Positions 4,612-56,995 of a DNA stretch of 64,000 bases are shown one piece after another (positions within the stretch are counted from its first letter, which is position 1; each line of letters begins with the position of its first letter). Source of the DNA: Rikenella microfusus (lineage in GTDB: Bacteria; Bacteroidota; Bacteroidia; Bacteroidales; VadinHA17); contig DZBJ01000005.1 of NCBI GenBank assembly GCA_022736275.1, positions 456 through 64,455 of the forward strand, written 5' to 3'. Made by a program: the position numbers and the translations under genes. The notes under the pieces are model-generated. The model did no database searches. It saw only the letters and a program-made list of their open reading frames with translations, and was not told the origin of the DNA.

Positions 4612-4688
4612 CCGGTGACCGGAAACCAGTGACCGGTTAACGCAGAACGGAAACAAGAGTAGGAAGAATTGAACCCGGAGACCGGTGG
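4612..4688. repeat. Phase-locked degenerate heptanucleotide array (CCGGNNA type), 11 units
   Basis: Units: ccggtga ccggaaa ccagtga ccggtta acgcaga acggaaa caagagt aggaaga attgaac ccggaga ccggtgg. CCGG recurs in the same 7-nt phase. Confidence 0.7.
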
Positions 4689-4863
4689 TTGATCTGAAGA
4701 CAACCTAAACCTCCGGTTGGTCAGTCACATCGAAAAGGCCGTGCACTGTTGGTTTATAACGACTTTCACGGACTGACAGAAGATGAAACAAATGCAAACA
4801 TGAAAAATTATTAAAAATCAGGGATTAATGCAAGGAAAAGCACCCTAAAATGTTCCGGAGCAT

Positions 4864-4891
4864 AAAAAACCGCCGAAGGTCACTTCGGCGG
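4864..4891 (-). terminator. Rho-independent terminator of the rnf operon
   Basis: The minus strand has a 9-bp stem ccgccgaag, a 4-nt loop and cttcggcgg, followed by a TTTTTT run. It lies 65 nt downstream of the rnfA stop. Confidence 0.8.
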
Positions 4892-4955
4892 TATGCGGCC
4901 CTGAGCCACCGTTGCGGTATTGCAGCGGCTTTGATTTCATAATGTTCAGACTGGA

Positions 4956-5528
4956 TTAAACAAGCCCGGCGAACCCCATGAAGGCGAGGGCCAGAATGCC
5001 CGCTGTAACAAGAGATATCGGCACTCCCTTCATCCCGGAAGGAACATTGGCGAGATCTAGCTGCTCACGTATCCCAGCGAGAATAACCAGGGCCAGACCA
5101 AAACCAATTGCAGTGGCGGCCCCGTAAACGATACCCTCGGCAAGATTGTAATTCTTCTTGATGACAAGAATCGCCACACCCAAGACCGCGCAGTTCGTCG
5201 TAATCAGAGGAAGGAAAATGCCCAGCGACTGGTACAGGGGCTGGCTGATCTTCTTCAGAATGATCTCAACCATCTGCACAAGCGCAGCAATAACAAGTAT
5301 GAACGTTATTGTCTGCATGAAGGCAATACCCATTGGTATCAGTACATAAACGTGTATGAGGTAGGTTACCATGGTGGCCAGCACCATGACAAAAGTTACC
5401 GCCCCCGACATGCCGATCGCGGTATTCACCTTGTTGGACACCCCGAGGAAGGGGCAGACACCCAGAAACTGGGCTAAAACCACGTTGTTGACAAATATTG
5501 CGCTGATTATAAGCAGAATATATTCCAT
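4956..5528 (-). CDS. rnfA: Rnf electron transport complex subunit A
   Basis: 190 aa, polytopic. The N-terminus [21 protein letters not shown] matches RnfA/RsxA. Confidence 0.92.
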
Positions 5529-5540
5529 TATCTTGCCTCC

Positions 5541-6125
5541 CTATGCTTTTTTGTTTATCCGGTTCACTACTGCTATCATATAACCCAGGGCGATGAATGC
5601 TCCGGGTGCAAGGATAAAGACCAGGATCGCATCTCCTTCTATGAATTTGAAACCGAAGATTGATCCGCCGCCCAGGATCTCCCTGACAGCCCCCAGCACA
5701 CCAAGCGCCAGAGTGAAGCCAATCCCCATCCCGGCGCCGTCAACAAACGACGACCAGACTGTATTCTTGCTTGCATACGCTTCCGCACGTCCCAGTACAA
5801 TACAGTTCACCACTATAAGCGGAATGAATATCCCCAGCGTCACATACAGTGCAGGAACATATGCCTGCATGACGAGGTCAACAATTGTTACGAAGGTGGC
5901 GATAACAACAATAAAAGCAGGTATGCGCACTTTGTCGGGAATGATATTTTTCATCAGCGCAATGACCACATTGGAGCCAATCAGGACAAACGTCGTTGCC
6001 ATCCCCATGCCAAGACCGTTCACTGCAGAAGAGGTCGTGGCAAGAGTGGGGCAGGTACCAAGTACCAGCACCAGTATCGGATTCTCCTTCAGGAAACCCT
6101 TTGTAAAGTTTTGCATCTGGTTCAT
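5541..6125 (-). CDS. rnfE: Rnf electron transport complex subunit E
   Basis: 194 aa. [27 protein letters not shown] and [21 protein letters not shown] match RnfE/RsxE. Confidence 0.92.
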
Positions 6126-6715
6126 ATCAGACCTCCTTTCTCTAATGTGTTGTACGCTCTCTGGACTCCCTCACAGTATGCCCTCGAGCTGATGGTGGCT
6201 GCCGTGATGGCATCAACCTGGCCACCGTCTTTCTTTACCTTAAGGGTGAACGCAGCCGGGTTCTTCCCCTTGAACTGATCCTTGAACTCGGGCTTCTCCG
6301 GGGTGCCGTCAGGAACCATCTTCGTGCCCAGCCCCGGAGTCTCCTTGTGCTCCAGGATTGTAATGTTGTAAATGTTCCCGTCAGGCGTGAAGCCTACCGC
6401 GAAGCTGATGAAACCGCTGAATCCATTGTTGGTGTACGAGCGGACAGCATACCCGACAATCTCTTCTCCGTTCTTCGCCGGATAAACATCAAGGGAATCG
6501 CCCTCGCCGGTGGGAAGCCTGAACATCTCTTCATTCGGGTCATTGGTGAACGCCGGCACCACCTGCTTGATGGCCTCAAGCTTTCTGTTCAGCATTGAAA
6601 TCTCGATGGGTGACTTGGTCAACTCATAGACGAAACCGAGAGAAGCAGAAGCTCCAACTGATATAAGCGTCAGCGAAAGAACCATATTCCTCAGTGATGA
6701 TTGCATCTTAGCCAT
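6122..6715 (-). CDS. rnfG: Rnf electron transport complex subunit G (FMN-binding)
   Basis: 197 aa with an N-terminal TM segment and an FMN_bind-type motif [12 protein letters not shown]. It overlaps rnfE by 4 nt. Confidence 0.88.
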
Positions 6716-7709
6716 GCTTCACCTCCTTTCCGAACCTGGCCGGCTTAATATACATATTCAGCAACGGCACAAAGGCATTCATGATCAGAATTGCAAACGA
6801 GACACCTTCGGGATAGGCGCCCCATGTTCGGATCAGTACCGTAATGACCCCTATGCCGATGCCGTAAATGATCATCCCCTTCGGTGTCATGGGTGACGTG
6901 ACATAGTCTGTCGCCATGTAGATGGCCCCCAGCATGATGCCTCCGGTAAGGAGGTGGAAGAGGGGATCGGCAAATTTCGTCGGATCAGCAAACCAGAGAA
7001 TCCCTGTAAAAATTGCTACCGTCAGAAGTACCGACACGGGAATGTGCCATGTGATGATCTTCCTCCAGATCATGTAGATTCCCCCAATGATAAGTGCCAG
7101 TGCAGCTATCTCACCCATTGATCCTCCCATCTGTCCGTAGAAAAGCTGCATGTGTGAAGGGACCTTCTCCATCAGTGCCGCCACTGTCTCACCGTTCCTG
7201 ATACCCTCACTCATGGTTCCAAGGGGAGTGGCTCCCGTAACAGCATCGAGATATCCTGTCTTAAAGCCTGAAGGAACCGGCCAGCTGGTCATCTGCACGG
7301 GGAATGATATAAGCAGGAAAACCCTTCCCACCAGCGCCGGGTTGAACGGGTTGCTGCCCAGTCCGCCGAAGGTCATCTTGGCAACTCCAATGGATATTAT
7401 CGCACCAATGATTATAATGTATACCGGAAGATTCGATGGTACATTGAATGCAAGCAGTAACCCCGTGACCACCGCAGAGCCGTCTGTCACTGAGGGTTTG
7501 GTCTTCAGGATGAATTTCTGTATCAGGTACTCAACCGCGACGCATGAGAGCACCGAGGTCAGAGTCACAATAATCGCCCCCATCCCGAAAAAATAAACAG
7601 AGGCTGCCAGCGCCGGGGCAAGGGCTGTCACCACGCCGTACATCAGCTTACGCGTCGTCTCTGGACTTTGCTGATGCGGTGATGGAGAGACATTAAGGAG
7701 GTTATTCAT
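6708..7709 (-). CDS. rnfD: Rnf electron transport complex subunit D
   Basis: 333 aa, polytopic, with the flavin-attachment-type motif DAVTGATPLG. It overlaps rnfG by 8 nt. Confidence 0.9.
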   Translation of the reverse strand: MNNLLNVSPSPHQQSPETTRKLMYGVVTALAPALAASVYFFGMGAIIVTLTSVLSCVAVEYLIQKFILKTKPSVTDGSAVVTGLLLAFNVPSNLPVYIIIIGAIISIGVAKMTFGGLGSNPFNPALVGRVFLLISFPVQMTSWPVPSGFKTGYLDAVTGATPLGTMSEGIRNGETVAALMEKVPSHMQLFYGQMGGSMGEIAALALIIGGIYMIWRKIITWHIPVSVLLTVAIFTGILWFADPTKFADPLFHLLTGGIMLGAIYMATDYVTSPMTPKGMIIYGIGIGVITVLIRTWGAYPEGVSFAILIMNAFVPLLNMYIKPARFGKEVKHG

Positions 7710-7721
7710 ATCGGTTCTTTG

Positions 7722-9056
7722 CTATTTGGAAATTCGTTCGCGTGCCATGCGGATCACCGTTGATTTGCCCAGTCTGATGTAGTCAAGCAGAGGCCTCTTT
7801 GCAGGACAGGTGTAGGCACAAGCTCCGCACTCCATACAGTCGGTGATCTTCTCCTGCTCTGCCTTATCCCACATCGCCTTCTCCGAAACCACGGAAATCA
7901 GCCACGGTTCAAGACCCATGGCGCACGCCGATGAGCACTTGCCGCACCTGATGCAGGGCAGAACCTCGGCGCGCTTTGATGATTCAGCGGGGAACATGAT
8001 GATACCCGAAGTGCCCTTGGTGACAGGCACATCCGTTATGGCAAGGGCTTTGCCCATCATGGGACCTCCGTTAATCACCTTCCCCGTATCATCCGGCAAG
8101 CCCCCGGCAGCTTCAATGAGTGCAGTAACAGGTGTGCCTATGCGTACCTGGAAATTACCGGGGTTCTTCACTGATCTGCCGGTCACCGTCACAACCCTCT
8201 CCATCAGCGGCTTGTTTTTCTGCACGGCCTCATAGACCGCAAGGGCCGTGCCCACATTCTGCACCACAACACCAACATCCACCGGCAGCCCGCCCGAGGG
8301 TACCTCGCGGCCCGTGCAGGCTTTAATAAGCTGCTTCTCACCTCCCTGCGGGTACTTGACCTTGAGAGACTGAACGGTTACCCCTTTGAATCCCTTCGCC
8401 AGCTCAGTCAGATGAGCGATGGCGTCAGGCTTGTTTGCCTCAATGCCGACAACCGCACTGTCAACTCCCAGGGCTCTCATGATGATCGATGCCCCTGTCA
8501 GCACCTCTGCTCCCTTTTCAAGCATAAGCCTGTGATCAGAGGTGAGGTAGGGCTCGCACTCCACTCCGTTGATTATAAGGAGATCACACTTCTTCCCGGC
8601 AGGAACGGTCATCTTGATATGTGTCGGGAAGGTTGCGCCGCCCATGCCAACAAGCCCGCACTGCTGGCAGCGCTCGATGATCTGCTCGCGCGTCATGGTG
8701 ACATCCCTGACCAGGGTCTTACTTCTGTCAATGGTCTCAACCCATTCGTCTCCTTCGACATCAATGACTATTGCCGTCTGCTTGTACCCCGTAGTGTCAA
8801 CCACGGTGTCAATCTTGCTGACTTTACCTGAGACAGGGGAGTGTATATTGGCAGATACAAATCCTTTTGCCTGTGCGATGACCTGCCCGGCCTTCACTGC
8901 CGCTCCCTTCTCCACCATGGGTGTTGCCGGTGCGCCTATATGCTGGGAGACGGGAACCGTTACCTGTAATGGTGCCGGAAGGACAACTATCGGCTTGCCG
9001 GCCGTCAGCTTGTTCTCAGGCGGATGAATGCCGCCTTTCGGGAATGTCTTGAACAC
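7722..9056 (-). CDS. rnfC: Rnf electron transport complex subunit C
   Basis: 444 aa with two 4Fe-4S motifs (CIRCGKCSSAC, CMECGACAYTCP) at the C-terminus. Confidence 0.9.
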   Translation of the reverse strand: MFKTFPKGGIHPPENKLTAGKPIVVLPAPLQVTVPVSQHIGAPATPMVEKGAAVKAGQVIAQAKGFVSANIHSPVSGKVSKIDTVVDTTGYKQTAIVIDVEGDEWVETIDRSKTLVRDVTMTREQIIERCQQCGLVGMGGATFPTHIKMTVPAGKKCDLLIINGVECEPYLTSDHRLMLEKGAEVLTGASIIMRALGVDSAVVGIEANKPDAIAHLTELAKGFKGVTVQSLKVKYPQGGEKQLIKACTGREVPSGGLPVDVGVVVQNVGTALAVYEAVQKNKPLMERVVTVTGRSVKNPGNFQVRIGTPVTALIEAAGGLPDDTGKVINGGPMMGKALAITDVPVTKGTSGIIMFPAESSKRAEVLPCIRCGKCSSACAMGLEPWLISVVSEKAMWDKAEQEKITDCMECGACAYTCPAKRPLLDYIRLGKSTVIRMARERISK

Positions 9057-9113
9057 GTTTCTCTGATTTTATCTGGTTATTCAATTGTCAGTTGACTGTC
9101 GGATATCTCTGAT

Positions 9114-9153
9114 CGTTGCCGCTTCTGTCAGTCCGTTGCCGCTTCTGATGGTC
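9114..9153. repeat. Tandem 20-nt duplication in the rnfB-rnfC spacer
   Basis: cgttgccgcttctgtcagtc followed by cgttgccgcttctgatggtc (17/20 identical). Confidence 0.8.
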
Positions 9154-9167
9154 CGTAAACGCATCTT

Positions 9168-10031: not shown

Positions 10032-10034
10032 CTG

Positions 10035-10451: not shown

Positions 10452-10536
10452 TAATAAAATCTTAATGGGGGCAATTTTAACGAATTGCAGGGAATAATTA
10501 AAGGAGAATAGTCATTATTTTGGAAAGACTGAAGAT

Positions 10537-10571
10537 CAGTCTGCAGTCAACAGTCTGCAGTCCACAGTCTA
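10537..10571 (+). repeat. Heptanucleotide array CAGTCNN x5
   Basis: Units: cagtctg cagtcaa cagtctg cagtcca cagtcta, in perfect 7-nt phase. Confidence 0.85.
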
Positions 10572-10628
10572 AAGTAAACAGGAGGTCATTAATTTACAAA
10601 CAATCAGATATATGACTTGCATACTAAG

Positions 10629-10663
10629 GACTGCCGACTGAGGACTGAGGACTGCTGACTCCT
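10629..10663 (+). repeat. Heptanucleotide array GACTGNN x5 (inverse complement of the CAGTC words); overlaps the recG stop codon
   Basis: Units: gactgcc gactgag gactgag gactgct gactcct. The recG TAG occupies 10662-10664. Confidence 0.85.
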
Positions 10664-12779
10664 AACTGATCTCGCTCCATGAGCACTTCTTTCCGAAAAG
10701 CTTCCGCAGAGTGGCCCTGAGCACCTGGTTTACCGGACGGGCAAGCTCAGGGTCATCACCGAGTATCTCCTCCGCCCGCGAGCGTGCGAGGTTGAGTATC
10801 TGACCGTCCCTCCCCAGGTCAGCAATTTTAAGGTCGAATGCCATGCCGCTTTGCTGCGTTCCCTCAAGATCACCCGGACCGCGCATGCGGAGATCAGCCT
10901 CGGCTATCTCAAAGCCGTCATTGGTCGCAATCATCGTGTTGATGCGCTCGGAGGCTTCCGCAGAGCGTTTATGCGATGTCATCAGGATGCAGTACGACTG
11001 GTCGGCACCGCGGCCCACCCGCCCCCGCAACTGATGCAACTGCGAGAGACCAAATCGCTCGGCACTCTCTATCACCATCACACTGGCGTTTGGGATGTCA
11101 ACACCCACCTCTATTACCGTGGTGGCAACCATTATCTGTGCCTGGCCGCGACGGAACAGGTTCATCGAGATCTCCTTGTCCTTCGACGTCATCCGGCCGT
11201 GCACCACGCTTATGCAGTACTGCGGCGGAGGAAAGGCTCGTGCCATGCTCTCAAGCCCGTCTTCAAGATCCTTATAATCAAGAGATTCCGATTCTCTTAT
11301 CAAAGGGTAGACCACGTATATCTGCCTTCCGTCCTCTATCTGTCTCCGCATGAAACCAAATACCTTTTCGCGCTCAGCATCGGTGAAGCTCATCGTCTTA
11401 ACCGGCTTGCGTCCGGGAGGCATCTCGTCAATGACCGAGACATCAAGGTCACCGTAGAGTGTCATCGCCAGCGTGCGGGGGATAGGTGTTGCCGTCATCA
11501 CCAAAACATGTGGCGGACAGTCGCTCTTCTGCCATAGCTTTGCACGCTGCGCCACACCAAAACGGTGCTGCTCGTCAATAATCACCAGCCCGAGATTCTT
11601 GTATCTGACGTTCTCCTCAATAAGGGCATGCGTGCCAATAAGTATAGTAATAGTACCGTCAAGCAACCCCTGCTCTATACGGGCCCTCTCTCTCCGTTTC
11701 GTCGAGCCTGTCAGCAGCGCCACCTCTGCATCAATCCCCTCCACAAACCGGCTTACTGAATTGTAGTGCTGTATTGCAAGCACTTCCGTGGGGGCCATTA
11801 TACAACTCTGAAAACCGTTGTCGGCCCCGATGAGCATGCTCATCAGAGCAACCATCGTCTTGCCGCTGCCCACATCGCCCTGCAGAAGCCTGTTCATCTG
11901 GTGACCGCTGCCCAGGTCACTCCTGATCTCACGTATGACCCTCTTCTGCGCCTCAGTCAGGGCAAAGGGCAGGTTGTTGGCGTAAAACGAATTAAGCCTC
12001 TCACCCACAACGGAAAAGAGAAAACCGCGCGTGTTCTTCGTCCTGCTTCCCTTGTACCTTAACAGGTTCAGTTGAATATAAAAGAGCTCCTCGAATTTTA
12101 ACCTGAACCGGGCATTCTCTATGTCAGTATTCGAGTCTGGAAAATGGATGCGGAGGAGTGCATCCTGGATACTCATCAGCTTCATCTGCCGGGTGATGGA
12201 ATCAGGCAGTGTCTCCGCAAAGCGAAGCCCCGGAAGTGTAAAGGCGGTGGCTATCAGCTTCGCAACAGCCTTTGATTGAAGGAAGTGATCCTTCATCTTC
12301 TCGGTGGTGCTGTACTGAGCTTCGAGGGCTGAGGCGACCCTCGATTCGCGCTTCTCAACCTCCTCCACCTCAGGATGGACTATGTTGAAGGCCCCGCTGA
12401 ACAGGGTTGGTTTGCCATATATAATGTACTCTTTTTCAATTTTGTATGCATTGAGCACCCATTTGTGCCCTTTGAACCACACCAGCCTCACCATCCCCGT
12501 GTCATCATAGTAATCAGCAGTAAGTCGTGAGCCCCTTCCGCCACCCTCGGTTGAGAAGCGCCGGATCTTTCCCCTGAGCTGGATGTACTGCATGTCGGTG
12601 TCAAGCTCACTGACCTTATAAAAACGGGTCTTGTCAATATACTTGTATGGGAAGTAATAAATGAGATCCCTGAAGGTGCGGATATCAGCCTCCTCCCCGA
12701 GCAGTTCGGCTCTCTTCGGGCCAACCCCCGGAAGGAATTTTATCTCACTGTCAAGGAGTTCTGACATCAGGAAAAGCAT
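10662..12779 (-). CDS. recG: ATP-dependent DNA helicase RecG
   Basis: 705 aa with helicase motifs GDVGSGKT, DEQHRFGV and QLHQLRGRVGRG plus an N-terminal wedge/OB region. An alternative ATG lies at 12767. Confidence 0.95.
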   Translation of the reverse strand: MLFLMSELLDSEIKFLPGVGPKRAELLGEEADIRTFRDLIYYFPYKYIDKTRFYKVSELDTDMQYIQLRGKIRRFSTEGGGRGSRLTADYYDDTGMVRLVWFKGHKWVLNAYKIEKEYIIYGKPTLFSGAFNIVHPEVEEVEKRESRVASALEAQYSTTEKMKDHFLQSKAVAKLIATAFTLPGLRFAETLPDSITRQMKLMSIQDALLRIHFPDSNTDIENARFRLKFEELFYIQLNLLRYKGSRTKNTRGFLFSVVGERLNSFYANNLPFALTEAQKRVIREIRSDLGSGHQMNRLLQGDVGSGKTMVALMSMLIGADNGFQSCIMAPTEVLAIQHYNSVSRFVEGIDAEVALLTGSTKRRERARIEQGLLDGTITILIGTHALIEENVRYKNLGLVIIDEQHRFGVAQRAKLWQKSDCPPHVLVMTATPIPRTLAMTLYGDLDVSVIDEMPPGRKPVKTMSFTDAEREKVFGFMRRQIEDGRQIYVVYPLIRESESLDYKDLEDGLESMARAFPPPQYCISVVHGRMTSKDKEISMNLFRRGQAQIMVATTVIEVGVDIPNASVMVIESAERFGLSQLHQLRGRVGRGADQSYCILMTSHKRSAEASERINTMIATNDGFEIAEADLRMRGPGDLEGTQQSGMAFDLKIADLGRDGQILNLARSRAEEILGDDPELARPVNQVLRATLRKLFGKKCSWSEIS

Positions 12780-12802
12780 AAATGGTGCTCACCGAAAATA
12801 GT

Positions 12803-12810
12803 TAAATTTG
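12803..12810 (+). promoter_or_regulatory. Candidate -7 promoter box (TAAATTTG) for the methyltransferase gene
   Basis: Exact TAnnTTTG, 29 nt upstream of the ATG at 12839. Confidence 0.4.
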
Positions 12811-12838
12811 AGCGGTTTTCAAATTGCCTTTCTAAGAA

Positions 12839-25219: not shown

Positions 25220-27388
25220 ATGGATTCTTCAGTACATATAAACATCATTGCTCAGAAACTCCGGCTGCACGACTGGCAGGTGGAGAATACCCTGCGTCTC
25301 ATTGATGACGGAGCAACAATACCCTTTATAAGCCGCTACCGCAAGGAGGTCACCGGCAGTCTCAATGAGGTCCATCTGGCGGAGATCCGTGACGAGTATG
25401 AGAGACTAAGAGAGCTCGACAAGAGGAGAGAAGCAATTATCAAGTCGATCATAGAGCAGGAGAAGATGACCCCGGAACTGCTGGCAAAGATCAATGCTGC
25501 GCTGACTCTGTCCCAGCTCGAAGATATCTACCTCCCCTACAGGCCCAGGAGAAAAACCCGCGCCTCAGTGGCAAGGGAGAGGGGACTAGAGCCTCTTGCC
25601 CTGTGGCTGCTTGAACAGGTACCCGGAGATCCCTATATTGAAGCGGAAAAATACCTGGGTGATGAGGTGGAGACAGCCGATGCAGCCCTGGCAGGTGCTC
25701 GTGACATCATTGCCGAGATGATCAGCGAGGATGAACAGGTGCGGGGTTCACTGAGAAGACTGTATGAACGTGATGCCGTAATCACTTCAAAAGGGGTGAA
25801 AGGCAAGGAGGAGGAGGGGAATAAGTTCAGGGATTACTTCGAGTGGTCCGAGCCCCTGCGCCGCTGTCCCTCACATAGGCTGCTGGCTATGCTCCGCGGC
25901 GAGGAGGAGGGCTTCCTCAGGCTTACAGTATTGCCGGCCGGTGATGATGCTGTCGAGACAGTGGAAAAGGTGATTGTCATGTCAAATAATGGCGCTTCCC
26001 GTCATGTGAAGGAGGCTGTTGCCGACAGCTGGAGCCGCCTGCTCGCTCCCTCTATGGAGACTGAGTTCAGAAAAACATCAAAGGAAAAGGCTGACGGGGA
26101 GGCGATACGCGTTTTTGCCGATAACCTCAGGCAGTTGCTGCTTTCTCCCCCTCTGGGAGAGAAGAGCGTCTTGGCCCTTGACCCGGGGTTCCGTACCGGC
26201 TGCAAAGTCGTCTGCCTCGACAGGCAGGGGTCAATGCTGCATCATGACGTTATCTACCCGCATCCGCCACAGAACGAGACCGCCCGCAGCGTCAGCAAAT
26301 TACTGTCTCTGATAGACAAATTCAGCGTGGAAGCAATAGCCATAGGCAATGGCACTGCCAGCCGCGAGACGGAGAAACTGATCAGACAGTACCTTACGCC
26401 GGGGTCTCCTGTTAAAATATACGTGGTGAGCGAAGCAGGCGCATCAGTCTATTCAGCTTCAAAAACTGCACGCGATGAGTTCCCGGATCATGACGTCACC
26501 GTACGTGGTGCCGTCTCCATCGGCCGTCGACTCATGGACCCTCTGGCGGAGCTCGTGAAGATAGATCCTAAATCCATTGGCGTCGGACAGTACCAGCATG
26601 ATGTCGACCAGACGCGGCTGCAGACCAGCCTTGACGAGGTGGTGATGTCATGCGTCAACGCAGTGGGAGTAGAGGTGAACACCGCCAGCCCCCATCTGCT
26701 TACTTACGTCTCCGGACTGGGACCTAAACTGGCGCAGAACATAGTGGCCCATCGCACGGAGAAGGGCCCGTTCATATCTCGATCTGAGCTGATGAAGGTG
26801 AAAAGAATGGGGGAAAAAGCCTATGAACAGGCTGCAGGTTTCCTAAGAATAAGAAACGCGGACAACCCGCTTGATGCCTCGGCTGTGCATCCCGAAAGCT
26901 ATCATATCGTGGAGAGAATGTCACGCGATGCCGGATGCACCGTGGCTGACCTGATAGGGGATGAGACGAGGCGAAAATCCATTAATATCGAAAAGTATAT
27001 TACCCCTGAGGCCGGACTGCCAACACTGAAGGATATTATGCTGGAACTGGCAAAACCGGGGCGCGATCCGCGGTCGTCAATACAGGAGTTCAGCTTTGCG
27101 GACATACACTCGCTCGAGGATGTGAAGGAGGGAATGGTCGTGCCGGGAATTGTGACGAACATAACGAAGTTTGGAGCGTTTGTAGACATAGGCGTTAAGC
27201 AGGATGGACTGGTGCATGTCTCCCAGATGTCAGACCGCTACGTCGATGACCCGTCAAAGCTGGTTAAGCTCCATCAGCAGCTTATGGTGAGAGTCGTCAG
27301 CGTGGATCTTGCACGGAAGCGGATTCAGCTGACGCTGAAAGGAGTCGGCAGTCCACAGCCCACAGTCGGCAGTCATTTTAGGCAATAG
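25220..27388 (+). CDS. tex: Tex-family transcription accessory protein (S1 domain RNA-binding)
   Basis: 722 aa with TIPFISRYRKE, a YqgF-like core and a C-terminal S1 domain (GMVVPGIVTNITKFGAFVDIG). The last 15 codons lie in a heptad repeat array. Confidence 0.92.
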   Translation: MDSSVHINIIAQKLRLHDWQVENTLRLIDDGATIPFISRYRKEVTGSLNEVHLAEIRDEYERLRELDKRREAIIKSIIEQEKMTPELLAKINAALTLSQLEDIYLPYRPRRKTRASVARERGLEPLALWLLEQVPGDPYIEAEKYLGDEVETADAALAGARDIIAEMISEDEQVRGSLRRLYERDAVITSKGVKGKEEEGNKFRDYFEWSEPLRRCPSHRLLAMLRGEEEGFLRLTVLPAGDDAVETVEKVIVMSNNGASRHVKEAVADSWSRLLAPSMETEFRKTSKEKADGEAIRVFADNLRQLLLSPPLGEKSVLALDPGFRTGCKVVCLDRQGSMLHHDVIYPHPPQNETARSVSKLLSLIDKFSVEAIAIGNGTASRETEKLIRQYLTPGSPVKIYVVSEAGASVYSASKTARDEFPDHDVTVRGAVSIGRRLMDPLAELVKIDPKSIGVGQYQHDVDQTRLQTSLDEVVMSCVNAVGVEVNTASPHLLTYVSGLGPKLAQNIVAHRTEKGPFISRSELMKVKRMGEKAYEQAAGFLRIRNADNPLDASAVHPESYHIVERMSRDAGCTVADLIGDETRRKSINIEKYITPEAGLPTLKDIMLELAKPGRDPRSSIQEFSFADIHSLEDVKEGMVVPGIVTNITKFGAFVDIGVKQDGLVHVSQMSDRYVDDPSKLVKLHQQLMVRVVSVDLARKRIQLTLKGVGSPQPTVGSHFRQ

Positions 27389-27397
27389 GCAATAGTG
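27342..27397 (+). repeat. Heptanucleotide array, 8 units (CAGTCNN then GGCAATA words)
   Basis: Units: gagtcgg cagtcca cagccca cagtcgg cagtcat tttaggc aataggc aatagtg. It contains the tex stop codon (27386-27388). Confidence 0.85.
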
Positions 27398-27405
27398 TCA
27401 ATGAT

Positions 27406-27483
27406 AGCCCGTAGGGCTTATAGTATTGTAGATTAATGTTATATAAATAAATCTCTTTCCCGTAGGGGATATATTATTGTAAA
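27406..27483 (+). repeat. Two hairpin + TATTGTAGA units (GTA triloop, 5-bp stems)
   Basis: Unit 1: agccc-gta-gggct + tatagtattgtaga (27406-27432). Unit 2: ttccc-gta-gggga + tatattattgtaaa (27457-27483). Both are homologous to the inverted units at 53680-53757. Confidence 0.75.
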
Positions 27484-47412: not shown

Positions 47413-47461
47413 ATTTCCGATTGTCGATTTCCGATTTAATCGACAATCGCAAATCGACAAT
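47413..47461 (+). repeat. Heptanucleotide array, 7 units (ATTGTCG/ATTTCCG/CGACAAT words)
   Basis: Units: atttccg attgtcg atttccg atttaat cgacaat cgcaaat cgacaat. It also contains the 8-bp inverted repeat attgtcga/tcgacaat. Confidence 0.85.
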
Positions 47462-47491
47462 AAAAAAAGCGGGTCTCTCCCGCTTTTTTTT
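47462..47491. terminator. Bidirectional Rho-independent terminator between lepB and rplT
   Basis: A7 run, stem agcggg, loop tctct, stem cccgct, then a T8 run. Confidence 0.8.
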
Positions 47492-50736: not shown

Positions 50737-50853
50737 ATGATTTTTAAGGGATGTGATGCAGACAGGTCAGGAGCTGAAAAATCAATCATTTTGCGGAGAT
50801 CATTAATTGGCACAGATTTTGGATTTAACAAAACAGCACCAACAACAGCAGTC

Positions 50854-51549: not shown

Positions 51550-51602
51550 TTCGGGTATAATACAAAAAAAACAGACGAACAGCTCAATGTAATAAATTTC
51601 GT

Positions 51603-51610
51603 TAAGTTTG
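51603..51610 (+). promoter_or_regulatory. Candidate -7 promoter box (TAAGTTTG) for the symporter gene
   Basis: Exact TAnnTTTG, 31 nt upstream of the ATG at 51641. Confidence 0.4.
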
Positions 51611-51640
51611 TGAGTTCACTAACCTAATCGGAATTAACAG

Positions 51641-53371
51641 ATGGATACAAAGTTTGCGCTTCACGGAATAGACTATATGGTAATGATAGTCTATTTTGCT
51701 TTTGTACTGGGTATTGGATGGGCCCTCAAGAAGTACATGAAAAACGCCTCCGCCTTTCTTGAGGCGGGCAGGTCAATACCGGCCTGGGTGGCAGGGCTGG
51801 CATTCATCTCAACCAACCTGGGGGCACTTGAGGTGATGGGGATGACGGGCTCCGGCCTCAAGTACGGGATGCTCACAACCCATTTCTACTGGATAGGCGC
51901 AATCCCGGCCATGGTCTTCCTGGCACTTTTCATGATGCGTTTCTATTACGGCTCAAAGGCCCGCTCGGTGCCTGAGTATCTTAAGCTTCGGTTCAATGAG
52001 AAGACCCGCGGCCTGAATGCAATCCTGTTCGCAGTCATGACTGTGCTGGCATCAGGTATCTCCATGTATGCCCTTGCAATCCTTCTTGAGAATGTGCTCG
52101 GGTGGAACTTCAACGTTTCGCTGCTGGCCTCGGCGGCAATAGTGCTTGCCTATACATATCTGGGAGGTCTCTCTTCCGCAATCTACAACGAGGTTCTGCA
52201 GTTCTTTATCATCATTATCGGCCTGCTTCCCATGGCTTTCCTTGTCATGAAAGATGTGGGCGGATGGAGCGGCATGCAGGCGAGTCTTGCTCCCATTGTA
52301 GAGAGCAGGGGGTTTGCAGCCGACACCTGGACGTCAACCTGGAAGTATACTGCCACTGAAACGGGAAATCCGCTCGGAGTGGCGTGGTACGGTATTTTCG
52401 CAGGACTGGGATTCGTCCTGTCATTCGGCTACTGGTGCACCAACTTCCTTATTGTTCAGCGTGCAATGGCGGCCGAATCGATGACTGCGGCACGCAAGGT
52501 GCCCCTCATCGGAGCAATACCCAAGATGTTCATTCCCTTCCTTATAATTGTTCCCGGCATTGCGGCACTGGTACTGCTTAATGACCCGCTGAAGGGATTT
52601 GCCCTGCCCCTGAATGATGCCGGACAACCAATATATGACTATACCATTATCATGCTGCTCAAGCAGTACCTTCCCGCAGGTGTCCTTGGCCTCGGTATCA
52701 CGGCACTGCTCGCATCATTCATGTCAGGGATGGCCGGAAACGTTTCAGCATTCAATACGGTATGGACGTATGACATCTACCAGAGCTACATCCGCCCGGC
52801 CACCGGTAACAAGGAGAGTGATGACAGACATTATCTCAAGGTCGGGAAGATGGCTACCATATTTGGGGTTCTTGTAAGCATAGCAGCAGCCTACGTGGCA
52901 AGTAAGTTCGGCAACATCATGGACTTCCTCCAGACTATCTTCTCAATGATCAACGCCCCGCTGTTTGCGGTCATATTCCTGGGTATGTTCTGGAAACGGT
53001 CAACGGGCAATGCAGCTTTTACGGGACTTCTCGTCGGTTTCCTGATCGCGCTCCTGCACCACGGACTGACACAGCCTGAGGGTGCAACAACCCTTGTCAA
53101 GGGCGGCTGGCTCGGTGTGATTCATACTTACCCGGTGGAGATGGCTCAGAACTTCTGGACCGCTATAATTGCATTTACATCCTCCACCTTTCTTACAGTG
53201 CTGATATCACTGCTTATGAAACGCGAAAAGAGCGATGAGGATCTCAACGGACTTGTCTATTCCATGACACCAAGACTCGACGACAGCAGTGTGATGTGGT
53301 ACAGCAGACCCTGGTTCCTTGCACTGATAGTGGGAATCGTTATGATTGTTCTATCTATTTTGTTCTGGTAA
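51641..53371 (+). CDS. Sodium:solute symporter family (SSF/SGLT-like) transporter
   Basis: 576 aa with about 13-14 TM and typical SSF blocks (AGRSIPAWVAGLAFISTNLGA, GGLSSAIYNEVLQ). Confidence 0.85.
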   Translation: MDTKFALHGIDYMVMIVYFAFVLGIGWALKKYMKNASAFLEAGRSIPAWVAGLAFISTNLGALEVMGMTGSGLKYGMLTTHFYWIGAIPAMVFLALFMMRFYYGSKARSVPEYLKLRFNEKTRGLNAILFAVMTVLASGISMYALAILLENVLGWNFNVSLLASAAIVLAYTYLGGLSSAIYNEVLQFFIIIIGLLPMAFLVMKDVGGWSGMQASLAPIVESRGFAADTWTSTWKYTATETGNPLGVAWYGIFAGLGFVLSFGYWCTNFLIVQRAMAAESMTAARKVPLIGAIPKMFIPFLIIVPGIAALVLLNDPLKGFALPLNDAGQPIYDYTIIMLLKQYLPAGVLGLGITALLASFMSGMAGNVSAFNTVWTYDIYQSYIRPATGNKESDDRHYLKVGKMATIFGVLVSIAAAYVASKFGNIMDFLQTIFSMINAPLFAVIFLGMFWKRSTGNAAFTGLLVGFLIALLHHGLTQPEGATTLVKGGWLGVIHTYPVEMAQNFWTAIIAFTSSTFLTVLISLLMKREKSDEDLNGLVYSMTPRLDDSSVMWYSRPWFLALIVGIVMIVLSILFW

Positions 53372-53390
53372 CCCTAAAAAAATAAAGATC

Positions 53391-53603
53391 ATGTTAGATA
53401 TAAGATTTCCGATTGGACTGATGTTCTCGATCTTCGGGCTGATAATTACGGTTTACGGCCTGATAACAATAGGCAATACTGAAATGTATGAGCGCTCGCT
53501 GAACGTGAATGTTAACCTGGTATCAGGATTGTGCACTCTGGCCTTCGGCCTGGTAATGCTCTTCCTTTCAGACCCGGTGAAGAAGATTCTCAGGAAAAAA
53601 TAG
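53391..53603 (+). CDS. Small 2-TM membrane protein downstream of the symporter
   Basis: 70 aa from the ATG at 53391 with two hydrophobic helices. Context is the only other evidence. Confidence 0.4.
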   Translation: MLDIRFPIGLMFSIFGLIITVYGLITIGNTEMYERSLNVNVNLVSGLCTLAFGLVMLFLSDPVKKILRKK

Positions 53604-53679
53604 TCATCCGGGAAGACAAAAAAAGCTGCGTGAGCAGCTTTTATTATCTAAATCAATATCGATTTTCTTTGTCATTAGG

Positions 53680-53757
53680 TCTACAATACTTCATGACCTA
53701 CGGTCAAAGATTCTAGTTATAATTAACTATTCTACAATATTTTATGGCCTACGGCCA
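53680..53757 (-). repeat. Two hairpin + TATTGTAGA units (inverted copies of those at 27406-27483)
   Basis: The minus strand reads tggcc-gta-ggcca + taaaatattgtaga (53757-53731) and tgacc-gta-ggtca + tgaagtattgtaga (53706-53680). Confidence 0.75.
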
Positions 53758-53765
53758 ACTCCTCA

Positions 53766-53828
53766 CTATTGCCTTCTGCCTATTGCCTGAAATGACTGCC
53801 GACTGAGGGCTGCCGACTAACGACTGGT
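53766..53828 (-). repeat. Heptanucleotide array, 9 units, abutting the lysA stop codon
   Basis: Plus-strand units: ctattgc cttctgc ctattgc ctgaaat gactgcc gactgag ggctgcc gactaac gactggt. The minus strand reads CAGTC-type then GGCAATA-type words. Confidence 0.85.
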
Positions 53829-54979
53829 TATATATCATCGGAAAATACCGCCGGCGGCAGCGAACGCATGTTGTAGCGCATCGCCATCACCTCCCCGTAG
53901 GCCCCGGCCGACCTGATGGCAATGAGGTCACCACGTCCGGTCTCAGGCAGTGAAATGAATTTCCCGAAGATGTCAGTGCTCTCACAGATAGGTCCTGCAA
54001 CGGTATATTTCCCGGGTGGCAGCACCGAGGTGAGATTTTCGATACGGTGGAAGGCGTGGTAGAGCGCGGGCCTCAGCAGGTCTGTCATTCCGGCGTCAAG
54101 GATGATAAAGGTCTCACTGGTACCTGGCTTCACATAAAGCACCTTAGAGATCAGGGCGCCGCACCCGGCGGTGAGTGATCTGCCAAGCTCAAAGGATATG
54201 GTGCTGCGTATCTTCCTGTCAAGATGCTCCCTGAAAATATCGAAGTAATCGGCAAAGGAGGGAAACCGGTCAGGCTCCTCGTAACTTATGCCAAGTCCTC
54301 CGCCCAAATTGATATCCTCAGGCTCCATTCCCCTGTCGGTGAACCATTGCCATAGCTCGTTCACCCTCAGGCAGAGATTCCGGTAGACATGGAGATCGGT
54401 TATCTGCGAGCCTATGTGGAAATGAATTCCTCTGAAGTCGATGTTCTCCAGCCCGGACAGGAGGGAGATCACCTTCTCAAGTTCGGCAATCCTTATGCCG
54501 AATTTGTTCTCATCGGTTCCGGTTGTAATATGTTTTAGCGTATGGGCTTCGACGTTTGGATTGATGCGCAGCGCCACTGCTGCCCGTCTCCCTGCCTTGC
54601 CTGCAATTTCATTTAAAACTTCCAGCTCTGCTGCCGATTCTGCATTGAAGCATTTTATCCCGAGCTTCAGGGCAGTCTCAATCTCCCGGTCGCTCTTGCC
54701 AACACCCGCAAAGACCGTTTCGTCTGCCGGAAATCCGCAGTTCACAGCCAGATCAATCTCATTGCCACTGACACAGTCTGCCCCAAATCCGTACCCTGCA
54801 ATTATCTTCATTATCACGGGGTTGAAGTTGGCCTTGACGGCATAATGTACCTTAAAACCCCTTTTGGCAGCCTCCCCTGAGGCTACGGCAAGCGTCTCCC
54901 GCAACAGGTCGAGATCATAATAGTAGAAGGGAGTCTCGTGTCTCTTCAGCTTTCCAGTCAATTCAGTCGTGAACATCAT
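53828..54979 (-). CDS. lysA: Diaminopimelate decarboxylase
   Basis: 383 aa with the PLP-Lys block HYAVKANFNP, NLGGGLGISY and GPICESTD. Confidence 0.92.
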   Translation of the reverse strand: MMFTTELTGKLKRHETPFYYYDLDLLRETLAVASGEAAKRGFKVHYAVKANFNPVIMKIIAGYGFGADCVSGNEIDLAVNCGFPADETVFAGVGKSDREIETALKLGIKCFNAESAAELEVLNEIAGKAGRRAAVALRINPNVEAHTLKHITTGTDENKFGIRIAELEKVISLLSGLENIDFRGIHFHIGSQITDLHVYRNLCLRVNELWQWFTDRGMEPEDINLGGGLGISYEEPDRFPSFADYFDIFREHLDRKIRSTISFELGRSLTAGCGALISKVLYVKPGTSETFIILDAGMTDLLRPALYHAFHRIENLTSVLPPGKYTVAGPICESTDIFGKFISLPETGRGDLIAIRSAGAYGEVMAMRYNMRSLPPAVFSDDI

Positions 54980-54981
54980 CT

Positions 54982-56295
54982 CTATGCAAAAAGTTTGTCA
55001 CTGAGTGACCGCAGGGCTTCCGTCTTGTCACTCGTATTGATAAGTATTGATACACTGTTTTCACTTCCCCCGTATGAAATCATCTTGACAGGAAGATGAT
55101 TAAGAGCTTCAAAAATTTCGGGCGCTGATCCCACCCGGTCGGGACGGAAGTCACCGACAATGCATATTATCGTCTGATTCCTTTCAACCTCAACCGCACC
55201 TATCGAACTCAGCGATCTGATTATATCCTCGAGGTGGGCGGGGTCCTCTATTGTCAGCGAAACCGAAACCTCGGAGGTTGTGATCATGTCTATCGGGGTC
55301 TTGAAGGCTTCAAAAACCTCGAAGATATTCCTCATGAAACCATATGCCAGCAGCATCCTGTCGGAATGGATCCTGAGGGCAGTGATGCCGTCCTTGGCCG
55401 CCACTGCCTTATAATCCACGTATTCTGATGCGGATGTTATAAGCGTTCCTTCATCAGATGGCTCCATGGTGTTCTTGAGCCTTACGGGAATGTTTTTCAT
55501 CCGGGCAGGATTGACGCTGGAGGGGTGGAGTATCTTCGCCCCGAAGAATGCCAGCTCCGCCGCTTCAGCGTAGGAGAGGCTCCTTATCACCCGCGTGTTT
55601 TCAACATACCTCGGATCATTGTTATGCAAGCCGCTGATGTCTGTCCATATCTGAACCTCGTCAGCTCCGATGGCCGCTCCGATGATAGTGGCGCTGTAGT
55701 CGCTGCCACCGCGGCGGAGGTTGTCAGTCTCGCCGAAGACATTGCGGCAGATGAACCCCTGGGTGATAATAATCTTCTCATCCGTTACCGCTGACAGCTC
55801 GCGCCTGAGGTTCTCCCTTATATAAAAATAGTCGGGCTCGCCATCCTTGTCGATCCTCATGAAATTCAGGGCTGGAAGAAGGAGGGAGGGAATGCCTGTC
55901 TCCACCATGAGGAAATGAAGCAGGGCAGTGGATATCAGCTCACCGCGGGCAAGGATTCGCTTCTCATTGTGCCTGCTGAACTCACGCGTAAAAAGTGTAT
56001 TGATATAGTTAAAATGTTCATCAATGAGGTCATGCGCCTGCTCAGCCCATGTTGTTGAGGTGAACAGCTCACTGGCCACCCGGTGGTACTCTTTGCGCAG
56101 CAGCTCGCACTTTTTGCCTGCTTCTTCCCTTCTTCCTTCGGCAAAAAATTCCGATATCTCCACTAATGCGTTTGTGGTTCCTGCCATCGCCGACAGCACA
56201 ACAATCTTAAGCTCACCGTCGTTGATCAGCCCGATCAGGGTCCTGAAGCGGTCAGGACTACCCACCGAGGTACCCCCGAATTTATAGACCTTCAT
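54982..56295 (-). CDS. lysC: Aspartate kinase
   Basis: The start at ATG 56295 gives MKVYKFGGTSVG. There are C-terminal ACT-like regions. It lies 2 nt upstream of lysA. Confidence 0.9.
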   Translation of the reverse strand: MKVYKFGGTSVGSPDRFRTLIGLINDGELKIVVLSAMAGTTNALVEISEFFAEGRREEAGKKCELLRKEYHRVASELFTSTTWAEQAHDLIDEHFNYINTLFTREFSRHNEKRILARGELISTALLHFLMVETGIPSLLLPALNFMRIDKDGEPDYFYIRENLRRELSAVTDEKIIITQGFICRNVFGETDNLRRGGSDYSATIIGAAIGADEVQIWTDISGLHNNDPRYVENTRVIRSLSYAEAAELAFFGAKILHPSSVNPARMKNIPVRLKNTMEPSDEGTLITSASEYVDYKAVAAKDGITALRIHSDRMLLAYGFMRNIFEVFEAFKTPIDMITTSEVSVSLTIEDPAHLEDIIRSLSSIGAVEVERNQTIICIVGDFRPDRVGSAPEIFEALNHLPVKMISYGGSENSVSILINTSDKTEALRSLSDKLFA

Positions 56296-56352
56296 CTTTA
56301 ATTTACTGCAATGGATGCTGCCTGTATGGCATCCGAAACATATTTTGGCGGT

Positions 56353-56360
56353 CAAATATA
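56353..56360 (-). promoter_or_regulatory. Candidate -7 promoter box (TATATTTG) for lysC-lysA
   Basis: Exact TAnnTTTG on the minus strand, 58 nt upstream of the ATG at 56295. Confidence 0.4.
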
Positions 56361-56432
56361 AGTAAAAGTGAAATCTGTAATTAAAATTTCCCCTCTTTTC
56401 AGCAAAGAGGCTTATTGATTAAAAAAAATCTT

Positions 56433-56440
56433 TATTTTTG
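56433..56440 (+). promoter_or_regulatory. Candidate -7 promoter box (TATTTTTG) for the tRNA-Leu pair
   Basis: Exact TAnnTTTG, 87 nt upstream of the first tRNA. Confidence 0.3.
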
Positions 56441-56494
56441 CACCCGCGTTACAAGACAAAGGATAAAAGACGCAAGAGATAAGAGGTTCCTTCA

Positions 56495-56522
56495 GACTTT
56501 TGACTTTTGACCTTTGACTTTT
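56495..56522 (+). repeat. Heptanucleotide array GACTTTT x4
   Basis: Units: gactttt gactttt gaccttt gactttt. It ends 4 nt before tRNA-Leu(CAG). Confidence 0.9.
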
Positions 56523-56526
56523 AATA

Positions 56527-56610
56527 GCCCAGATGGCGAAATTGGTAGACGCGCTAGTTTCAGGGACTAGTGTCAGCAATGATGTGCAGGTTCGAGTCCT
56601 GTTCTGGGCA
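56527..56610 (+). tRNA. tRNA-Leu (anticodon CAG)
   Basis: Hand fold: acceptor gcccaga/tctgggc, D-arm gcg-aaattggtaga-cgc, anticodon stem ctagt/actag with loop ttCAGgg, a long variable arm, and T-arm gcagg-ttcgagt-cctgt. No CCA is encoded. Confidence 0.9.
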
Positions 56611-56619
56611 CAAAAATCT

Positions 56620-56696
56620 GCACAGAGCACAGTGCAAGGAGCACAGAGCAGTAACATTATGCCCTGAGCCCTGAGTTCTGAGCCCTGAGCCAAAAC
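56620..56696 (+). repeat. Heptanucleotide array, 11 units, filling the inter-tRNA spacer
   Basis: Units: gcacaga gcacagt gcaagga gcacaga gcagtaa cattatg ccctgag ccctgag ttctgag ccctgag ccaaaac, all in one phase. Confidence 0.9.
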
Positions 56697-56697
56697 C

Positions 56698-56781
56698 GCC
56701 CAGGTGGTGAAATTGGTAGACACGCCAGCTTGAGGGGCTGGTGCTCGCAAGGGTGTGCAAGTTCGAGTCTTGTCCTGGGCA
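56698..56781 (+). tRNA. tRNA-Leu (anticodon GAG)
   Basis: Hand fold: acceptor gcccagg/cctgggc, D-arm gtg-aaattggtaga-cac, anticodon stem ccagc/gctgg with loop ttGAGgg, a long variable arm, and T-arm gcaag-ttcgagt-cttgt. Confidence 0.9.
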
Positions 56782-56790
56782 CACAAAAAA

Positions 56791-56815
56791 AGCTGCATAA
56801 ACGCAGCTTTTTTTT
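56791..56815 (+). terminator. Rho-independent terminator after the tRNA-Leu pair
   Basis: Stem agctgc, loop ataaac, stem gcagct, followed by a T7 run. Confidence 0.75.
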
Positions 56816-56820
56816 ATTGG

Positions 56821-56869
56821 GAGTTCTCAGTCAGCAGTCTTCAGCCGGCAGTCATTTCAAGCAATAGAG
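56821..56869 (+). repeat. Heptanucleotide array, 7 units (CAGTCNN then GCAATAG)
   Basis: Units: gagttct cagtcag cagtctt cagccgg cagtcat ttcaagc aatagag. It shares ggcagtcattt.a.gcaatag with the arrays at 27342 and 53766. Confidence 0.85.
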
Positions 56870-56884
56870 GGGCGAGCGTTAATA

Positions 56885-56903
56885 AATGACCCAGTGGGTC
56901 ATT
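56885..56903. other. 8-bp hairpin with a triloop
   Basis: aatgaccc-agt-gggtcatt, lying between two heptad arrays. Confidence 0.6.
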
Positions 56904-56946
56904 TTAGCGATGCAGCCAGATTGCAGGGTAGGCAAGGGAATTTTTG

Positions 56947-56995
56947 ATTTCAGATTGTCGATTTAATCGCACAAATCGTAAATCGCAAATTGGCA
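56947..56995 (+). repeat. Heptanucleotide array, 7 units (ATTGTCG/ATCGNAA words), ending 1 nt before the GH3-gene stop codon
   Basis: Units: atttcag attgtcg atttaat cgcacaa atcgtaa atcgcaa attggca. It shares attgtcg + atttaat + cg with the array at 47413, which has one extra unit (atttccg) between them. Confidence 0.85.

Follow-up and report, generated by a model that had tools for sequence, protein, structure and literature searches.

The spacers in a 64,000-nt stretch of a Bacteroidales metagenome-assembled genome (MAG) labelled Rikenella microfusus (GCA_022736275.1, contig DZBJ01000005.1, positions 456-64,455; "the window" below is this whole stretch) carry tandem arrays of degenerate heptanucleotides in exact 7-nt phase, and related genomes carry such arrays at the same sites, often with other words and other numbers of units. 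The array feature is real, strong, and lineage-wide. We read the arrays as heptanucleotide simple sequence repeats (SSRs) of the class formed by the long-unit SSRs (LSSRs) of bacteria and the short tandemly repeated repetitive (STRR) sequences of cyanobacteria, driven by slippage, tolerated in spacers, and copied between loci, a reading to which we give a probability of roughly 0.6.

Heptanucleotide arrays in the window

Periodicity was measured against within-spacer shuffles. Autocorrelation of the intergenic DNA peaks at lag 7 (z = 5.0), lag 14 (z = 3.0), and lag 21 (z = 3.9), and coding DNA has the 3-nt codon period alone, with no signal at lag 7, so the contrast between intergenic and coding DNA proposed in the original prediction holds in the window. 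A corrected gene map, with tRNAs and small open reading frames (ORFs) added and Tex cut at the start of its array, gives an intergenic total of 5,826 nt. On it a strict detector requiring at least 14 of 21 matches at lag 7 finds nine arrays, compared with a shuffle mean of 0.28 and maximum of 2, and zero or one array at every other lag from 4 to 12; Tandem Repeats Finder (TRF) reports 11 period-7 arrays. The ten stretches listed in the original prediction all keep an exact 7-nt register. Lag-7 identity is 0.75-0.90 at 10537-10571, 10629-10663, and 56495-56522 and 0.50-0.64 in six of the others, and two stretches are weak: 56821-56869 (0.40) and 4612-4688 (0.50, with its word in 6 of 11 units). 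The further statement that intergenic DNA is built from such arrays was too strong, because arrays make up about 10% of it (610 of 5,826 nt at the loosest setting, in 6-7 of 30 spacers of at least 50 nt).

The arrays are reproducible. The window's RecG is encoded on nine public contigs, and six loci were compared (two from NCBI MAGs, two from JGI metagenomes, and two from Logan assemblies). These independent assemblies are gap-free, 99.96-99.99% identical to one another, and 2-6 single-nucleotide polymorphisms apart, and the 320 nt around the recG spacer, arrays included, are the same base for base in all six, as the original prediction had expected of independent assemblies. The arrays are listed here together with the modules that accompany them, where M1 is a CAGTC module, M2 an array of GGCAATA units, M3 a hairpin module, and M4 a structured module.

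4612-4653, plus strand: weak CCGGNNA array, four good units and then decay; a loose threshold is needed
4675-4688, plus strand: two further in-phase CCGG units that continue the weak CCGGNNA array
10520-10680, minus strand: segmented long hairpin from the two inverted recG arrays, with 5-6 bp helices and 2x2 internal loops between them
10537-10571, plus strand: (CAGTCNN)x5, antisense to recG and rseC, inverted partner of 10629-10670
10629-10670, minus strand: (CAGTCNN)x5-7 on the recG sense strand, covering the recG stop TAG (10662-10664) and the last two codons
27340-27377, plus strand: M1 (GGAGTCG GCAGTCC ACAGCCC ACAGTCG GCAGTCA), encoding the last ~15 residues of the Tex ORF
27379-27397, plus strand: M2 array, GGCAATA x2.4, with the Tex stop codon as a TAG inside it
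27402-27483, plus strand: two M3 hairpin modules (27402-27432 and 27453-27483) between the arrays and the next start codon
47413-47461, plus strand: (CGATTNN)x3 and then directly inverted (AATCGNN)x3.5, in the lepB 3' untranslated region (UTR)
53678-53759, minus strand: two M3 hairpin modules (53759-53729 and 53708-53678)
53766-53825, minus strand: M1 (53790-53825) and M2 x3 (53766-53788), sense to lysA, from 2 nt past the lysA stop
56495-56522, plus strand: (GACTTTT)x4, ending 4 nt before tRNA-Leu(CAG); probable tRNA leader
56620-56692, plus strand: (GCACAGA)x4, two degenerate units, and (CCCTGAG)x4 without a break in register, occupying the whole spacer between two tRNA-Leu genes
56820-56867, plus strand: M1 and one unit of M2, downstream of the tRNA terminator
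56868-56935, plus strand: M4 structured module, GGGCGAGCGTTAA-hairpin-TTAGCGA...GCCAGATTGCAGGG
56947-56995, plus strand: GATTTNN and AATCGNN arrays, kin to 47413-47461, up to the GH3 stop codon (56997)

Arrays reach functional boundaries: stop codons are abutted or overlapped, and tRNAs lie 4-5 nt beyond an array end. Behind lysA the order is stop codon, arrays, two M3 modules, and a terminator (53642-53621); the lepB array is flanked by the lepB stop and, immediately after it, by a canonical intrinsic terminator (47462-47490); and the CCGGNNA array is downstream of the rnfA terminator (4892-4869). The array-bearing spacers, as 3' UTRs and as tRNA leaders or precursor spacers, are presumably transcribed, and a TAnnTTTG-like box that can be read at ~56433 may be a promoter. 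The gene names used (Tex, LysA-type decarboxylase, S26 signal peptidase, and GH3) had all been assigned correctly. CAGTC arrays had been placed on the sense strand of the upstream gene in four of four cases, which is right for 10629-10670, 27340-27377, and 53790-53825 but not for 10537-10571, which is antisense.

Two further features of the window's spacers were noted. The rnfC-rnfB spacer has a 20-nt tandem repeat, CGTTGCCGCTTCTGACAGTC x2.2 at 9114-9156 (TRF), which ends in CAGTC. A 276-aa ORF with a GTG start at 62507-63337 overlaps the end of the gene at 61200-62618 and occupies most of an apparent 822-nt spacer; it is probably coding, as a gene of its own or as a frameshifted continuation, and not intergenic DNA.

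Turnover of arrays in related species

A scan for RecG, with one genome per species, gave 43 species at 81-96% identity (the close group) and 37 at 56-66% (the distant group). The related loci are from MAGs labelled Bacteroidales bacterium, uncultured Rikenellaceae, or Rikenella sp., with gene calls that are ORF-based and anchored on window proteins; the sample covers ~10 kb either side of recG, and its species are phylogenetically related and therefore not independent. Gene order around recG is conserved among relatives. Strict heptamer arrays are found in the orthologous recG-rseC spacer of 29 of 37 close species and in the divergent spacer between recG and a methyltransferase (MTase) gene of 11 of 37, and most other orthologous spacers near recG in the close group have no strict heptamer arrays. 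The association with stop codons extends to this larger sample, with the first array no more than 16 nt from the recG stop in 17 of 37 species. A confinement to 3' ends does not, given the divergent MTase-recG spacers and the arrays in tRNA leaders.

The recG-rseC site is fixed and its contents turn over. Array words vary by species (GGCARTA, CAGTCNN, AATCGCA/AGTCGCA, CCNTGNN, GTCTTCN, TTTGCGG, and AATTAAG), copy number spans 2 to 44 units, and even relatives at 96% RecG identity have had their spacer content replaced; the right-hand flank of the spacer, CCAAAATAATGAC..., is conserved. The spacer is empty in two species, L307 and L349, each with 93% RecG identity: in its 68 nt (~12100-12170) the conserved CAAAATAATGAC flank comes straight after the stop. 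Arrays and modules amount to 100-500 nt of this spacer in the 35 others. From these empty spacers it follows that the arrays are dispensable at this site.

Arrays change in length by whole units, as the original prediction had proposed. One pair of arrays, in L318 and L342, is cleanly homologous, with 92% identity over 402 aligned nt and indels of 7, 14, 21, 28, and 64 nt, and GGCAATA copy number ranges from 1 to 6 among copies of one element. Two whole-unit differences had been proposed between copies inside the window: the extra unit at 53773-53779 relative to the copy at 27390 is real, but the difference between 47427 and 56960 is ambiguous, as an alignment of the two 32-nt stretches needs no gap. 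Indel lengths are informative for strictly filtered array pairs alone, and we discarded a count from all-against-all spacer alignments (14.6% multiples of 7, equal to chance), in which permissive global alignment had paired non-homologous arrays. In the mixed arrays of L311 and L329, point changes (CAGTC to CAATC, for example) were later amplified, giving periods of 14, 21, and 35.

The 3' end of recG reads ATC AGT TAG in the window and ATA AGC TGA in relatives; the peptide is unchanged, and the window version is in CAGT register. The window recG end looks as though the array spread into the ORF through synonymous changes. An array-driven C-terminal extension of RecG (705 vs 701 aa) was also considered and rejected: reading the frame gives the same WSEIS* end throughout, so the length difference sits at the N-terminus. 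Other repeat types were seen in the hot-spot spacers, including a 28-nt hairpin unit (TCGCAAATCCGCCGGTGGGCGGACACAG) x5.4 at 12193-12344 of L308, a ~51-nt hairpin unit x3 in the recG spacer of L322, and a 42-nt repeat x7.7 at 18420-18738 of L119.

Heptamer arrays are unusually abundant in this Bacteroidales lineage. With the strict detector, the close group has 82 arrays at lag 7 compared with 16, 21, 20, and 8 at lags 5, 8, 10, and 11, and the period is a multiple of 7 in 47 of the 114 intergenic TRF arrays of relatives. The distant group has a slight excess at lag 7 (30 arrays, compared with 14, 20, 11, and 11 at the same four lags), and the codon-inflated lags 6 and 9 give 39 and 27. Clean heptamer arrays were nevertheless seen in some distant Bacteroidales, the termite-gut Prevotellaceae and Muribaculaceae MAGs L363, L365, L369, and L380, with (AATTAAG)x6, (AACTAAA)x6, (TAGTGAT)x7, and ACAATCG-type words, and AATTAAG is also an array word of the close relative L310.

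Neither of two ideas about the words survived. CAGTC is not a special word shared across phyla: in viral contigs (CAGTCNN)x4 has 81 matches and heptamer arrays with control cores are equally common (at least 120 for CTGAC, 43 for CGATC, and 24 for CATGC), all of these counts being far above chance by a rough estimate of ~0.1. Nor do all words belong to one mutational superfamily around GGCAGTC, since the enrichment is weak and leaves no single family (10% of array consensus units within one mismatch of GGCAGTC vs 1.7% of random heptamers, and a mean distance of 2.91 vs 3.24). Array words that are so weakly inter-related argue against one sequence-specific binding partner.

Composite elements and competing explanations

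The CAGTC arrays at 10626-10663 (minus), 27340-27377 (plus), 53790-53825 (minus), and 56820-56855 (plus) are copies of a single ~35-nt module, M1, with 83-88% identity, and are not independent of one another. In three of the four copies M1 is followed by ATTT(C/T)A and a GGCAATA array, M2, and over the 49-nt M1-ATTT-M2 stretch the lysA copy is 88% identical to the Tex copy; after M2 come two copies of M3 or the ~70-nt M4. Composites of M1-M2-M3 and of M2-M4 are found at non-orthologous loci in different genomes with 87-92% identity. A metagenome scan for the M1-M2 junction gave 28 matches, of which 25 are due to chance and three are true copies, each behind a different gene and in sense orientation. 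In two of the three an ORF runs through the arrays to the TAG of GGCAATAG, and in the third the array begins 8 nt past the stop; these copies have two to six GGCAATA-type units, compared with the single unit at 56861-56867 of the window. The 57-nt core between the recG arrays is single-copy, with no second copy found.

M3 consists of a 4-bp stem with a GTA loop, ~7 nt, and ATTGTAGA. Its 17 copies have eight different stems, complementary in every case, and stand mostly as tandem pairs past the heptad arrays and ahead of the next start codon; in relatives it is found at 4758-4890 of L386 and, in ~8 tandem copies, at 4690-5040 of L387. M4 is dispersed (window 56868-56935; L014, two copies; L119 12155; L323 12140; L327 12470 and 12529, minus strand; L331 12303, minus strand; L348 12133 and 12204) and preceded by a GGCAATAG unit in every copy. 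Compensatory changes affect 8 of the 16 pairs of its consensus hairpin, which makes M4 a candidate structured RNA or element of the repetitive extragenic palindromic (REP) type. Among the Rfam 15 covariance models, none matches M3 or M4, and two tRNAs are the sole matches.

At the Tex locus the arrays enter a reading frame. The last 15-16 codons of the Tex ORF (25220-27388) are CAGTC and GGCAATA arrays; in a protein of 722 residues the S1 domain stops at residue 707, with the array-encoded tail beyond it, and orthologues of 710-732 aa have array-encoded tails of different lengths. The original prediction had kept arrays out of conserved coding sequence; the Tex ORF does read into its array, and such tails are not conserved. 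The CAGTC array is orthologous at this locus in L386, L388, and L389 (83-90% Tex identity), with different unit counts, and L387, which has 96% RecG identity, has M2 and the tandem M3 modules instead. The M1-ATTT-M2 junction of the window's Tex copy resembles the other copies in the window, and its own orthologues have a different junction, which indicates copying between loci. On the CAGTC strand all three frames of CAGTCNN arrays are free of stop codons, and arrays inflate ORF calls because they are open in all reading frames, as for Tex and for the MTase gene beside recG, called at 286-424 aa among relatives. The longer MTase calls may be arrays read as N-terminal extensions, an annotation artifact. 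The divergent MTase-recG spacer arrays lie at ~9340-9630 in L116-L120 and L306-L349, and the corresponding spacer of the window is 12780-12838.

In the explanation we favor, arrays would arise and resize through slipped-strand mispairing, with the whole 7-nt unit or a block of such units as the step, and would build up in spacers tolerant of extra DNA until growth halts at a constrained boundary (stop codon, 5' end of a tRNA, terminator, or promoter). Together with the hairpin modules M3 and M4 they would make up intergenic mosaics, and parts of these may be copied between loci via gene conversion or some other mobilization. We infer slippage as the mechanism, and also that arrays are transcribed within 3' UTRs and tRNA precursor spacers, where each would be individually dispensable; they probably have little or no essential function. 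A pair of inverted arrays would form a long hairpin that may incidentally stabilize or end the upstream transcript.

Several observations weigh against this explanation, beginning with the preference for 7 nt, which it leaves unexplained. Arrays are retained at the recG-rseC spacer in 78% of species. There is no array length polymorphism among the six near-identical assemblies, and the slippage rate is therefore not extreme. In ~10 of the 11 independent cases, a composite element follows the upstream gene in its sense direction, a bias that suggests a link to transcription or some selection. Finally, conservation in the CAGTC units is 84-100% at the five core positions and 32-40% at the other two (hand count), a pattern that would not result if a slipped array decayed uniformly. 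Amplification in multi-unit blocks accounts for part of this core conservation.

The strongest alternative, which we hold to be possible and clearly the less probable, is that the arrays belong to mobile mosaic intergenic elements, resembling REP sequences and bacterial interspersed mosaic elements (BIMEs) or MITEs (miniature inverted-repeat transposable elements), that are inserted by a trans-acting enzyme with M3 and M4 as its recognition structures. The same composites at non-orthologous loci of different genomes, the replacement of recG spacer content between relatives sharing 96% RecG identity, the empty sites in L307 and L349, and the sense-orientation bias all favor it, as do the modules themselves: the ever-complementary M3 stems, the compensatory changes in M4, and the amplification of M3 in L387. 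However, neither terminal inverted repeats (TIRs) nor target-site duplications are visible when filled and empty recG spacers are compared, and the inverted CAGTC arrays resemble TIRs yet enclose a core with no other copy. The Tex array is an old, orthologous one and not the product of a recent insertion, arrays of many unrelated words occur without M3 or M4, and no transposase is linked to arrays in the sequence seen. A bolder form, about as doubtful, is that arrays and M3/M4 together constitute an undescribed BIME-like mosaic system of uncultured, Rikenellaceae-labelled Bacteroidales, oriented by transcription and copied between 3' UTRs by a dedicated mechanism, in which the 7-nt units with their conserved 5-nt core would be functional, perhaps a ladder recognized by a protein or enzyme, and not debris of slippage.

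Rather improbable, in our estimate, is that arrays serve as single-stranded RNA (or DNA) platforms binding one protein per heptad, through a cold-shock, S1, or RRM domain, and, in 3' UTRs and leaders, influence how stable an mRNA is, how its 3' end forms, or how Rho loads. Such a role would suit arrays that stand in 3' UTRs between stop codon and terminator, lie in sense orientation behind genes, keep a 5-nt core with two variable positions, and, when direct, are mostly predicted to be unstructured (median folding z = -0.39), and CspB is reported to bind heptamers with one protein per unit (a finding cited in PMC4679880). It fits poorly with orthologous spacers that have wholly different words in 2-44 copies, with two species that have no arrays at all, and with arrays in divergent promoter spacers and tRNA precursor spacers. 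A composition like that of Rho utilization (rut) sites is not evident either, as 27 of 42 arrays have more C than G on the sense strand, no clear bias.

Still less likely is selection of inverted array pairs as long hairpins, serving as terminators or blocks to 3' exonucleases like REP/BIME or the hupS-hupL STRR. The inverted recG arrays of the window do form a hairpin of great predicted stability (-65.9 kcal/mol, z = -6.0, with 0 of 200 shuffles equally stable), inverted CGATT/AATCG arrays occur at 47413-47461, other inverted arrangements are present in L117, L120, L325, and L388, and STRR hairpins have been discussed in the same terms (PMC2670836). But across 36 orthologous recG-rseC spacers the median folding z is that same -0.39, with 25% below -2 and 11% below -4, so the hairpin is not a conserved feature of this spacer, and a conserved hairpin or terminator role of the arrays is not supported. 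Several arrays, including those in tRNA leaders and M1-M2, have no inverted partner, and two are already followed by canonical terminators. An assembly artifact or chance, for which the metagenomic origin of the source might speak, is practically negligible given the base-for-base agreement of six independent assemblies at the recG spacer, arrays in short-read and long-read MAGs of 43 species, and shuffle controls that exclude chance.

For the question of why bacteria favor 7-nt repeats, the recG spacers offer a dense natural series for comparison, in which one orthologous site in 37 species has 0 to 44 units, many words, and empty states, alongside array-encoded protein tails. This series can be used to study slippage dynamics, dispensability, and the effects of orientation, with experimental follow-up made hard by the fact that all members are uncultured. 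Arrays are also likely break points in short-read assemblies, and M3 and M4, both covarying modules, deserve separate attention as a side lead.

Comparison with known repeat systems

The arrays have the properties of the heptanucleotide SSR/LSSR class: head-to-tail 7-nt tandems that are commoner than chance and than neighboring unit lengths, a predominantly intergenic position in which ORFs are entered just as short non-conserved C-terminal tails, and whole-unit copy-number variation between related sequences. Heptamers are over-represented among bacterial LSSRs (units of 5-11 nt), of which they form the most frequent class, and one proposal attributes this to slippage of the polymerase across a contact of ~7 nt (Mrazek et al., 2007, in the summaries of PMC4679880 and PMC4692102). 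LSSRs, as represented in those summaries, are likewise intergenic with an excess at 7 nt and are phylogenetically scattered; this lineage and its density of arrays lie outside that survey. The SSRs of contingency loci, which underlie phase variation, are a poor match, as the flanking genes here are housekeeping genes (recG, tex, lysA, lepB, and tRNA genes) and the unchanged array lengths among the six assemblies speak against contingency-locus hypermutability.

Mosaics of short modules at gene 3' ends, able to form hairpins and varying in presence among relatives, are features shared with REP and BIME. The enterobacterial REP is an imperfect palindrome of 35-40 nt with a 5' GTAG, mobilized by a REP-associated tyrosine transposase (RAYT), and has no 7-nt tandem substructure. 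M3 differs in having its GTA(G) in the loop of a 4-bp stem, and no RAYT is present in the sequence seen here. BrickBuilt of Porphyromonas gingivalis, a Bacteroidales intergenic MITE with an internal minisatellite as outlined in PMC4596501, also joins a tandem array to the frame of a mobile element; in that outline it has a longer unit and TIRs, which were not found here.

The STRR of heterocystous cyanobacteria had been named as the closest analogue. STRR1 (CCCCAGT) and STRR3 (CAACAGT) rotate to CAGTCCC and CAGTCAA, members of the CAGTCNN class. The window has no tandem CCCCAGT, CAACAGT, or TTGGTCA, and has single CAGTCAA-type units inside degenerate arrays. Both systems are 7-bp tandems in spacers, some of them hairpin-forming, but the host phylum is different (the source and its relatives are Bacteroidales MAGs, not heterocystous cyanobacteria) and the vocabulary here is broader. 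STRR function is unresolved, with possible hairpins, an effect on transcript stability, and translational coupling among the proposals, and hairpins between hupS and hupL have been discussed (PMC2670836). The functional comparison is fair; the heptamers of Xanthomonas and Nostoc are closer.

Heptamer repeats have also been described in Bacteroidota, contrary to what had been assumed: MacGregor (2015; PMC4679880) reported direct repeats of TAACTGA from Beggiatoaceae, from Cyanobacteria, and from five Bacteroidetes, one of them Paludibacter of the Bacteroidales, with arrays that are long in some Bacteroidetes. The array-bearing intergenic regions of Gramella and Aequorivita also have direct repeats of other heptamers, and at three of four such loci a close relative has a shorter spacer without obvious repeats (PMC4679880). 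That system uses one perfect word, mostly just 5' of starts, whereas the words here are degenerate and mostly past stops, and TAACTGA occurs in the window eight times singly and never in tandem.

The closest published counterparts are the (GGGAATC/GGGANTN) arrays of Xanthomonas, ~185 heterogeneous (GGGANTN)n arrays per genome, and the GGGGAYT arrays of Nostoc, which have a conserved core, some inverted pairs, and mostly the same neighboring genes in related species (two species for the (GGGANTN)n arrays) while length and sequence vary extensively (Rehm et al., 2015; PMC4692102). Like the arrays here they are intergenic; they have 2-26 units and no link to gene function, and their G-tracts have led to their discussion as G-quadruplex formers (PMC4692102). 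No array word in the window or in its relatives has the G3-4 tract per unit that such a structure needs. In further contrast to Xanthomonas and Nostoc, the arrays described here use many words (CAGTCNN, GGCAATA, AATCGCA, CCCTGAG, and GACTTTT), are joined to hairpin modules, and have a Bacteroidales host. Arrays of this kind are thus already known, Bacteroidetes included, and every architectural trait has a published counterpart; what is new is this lineage.

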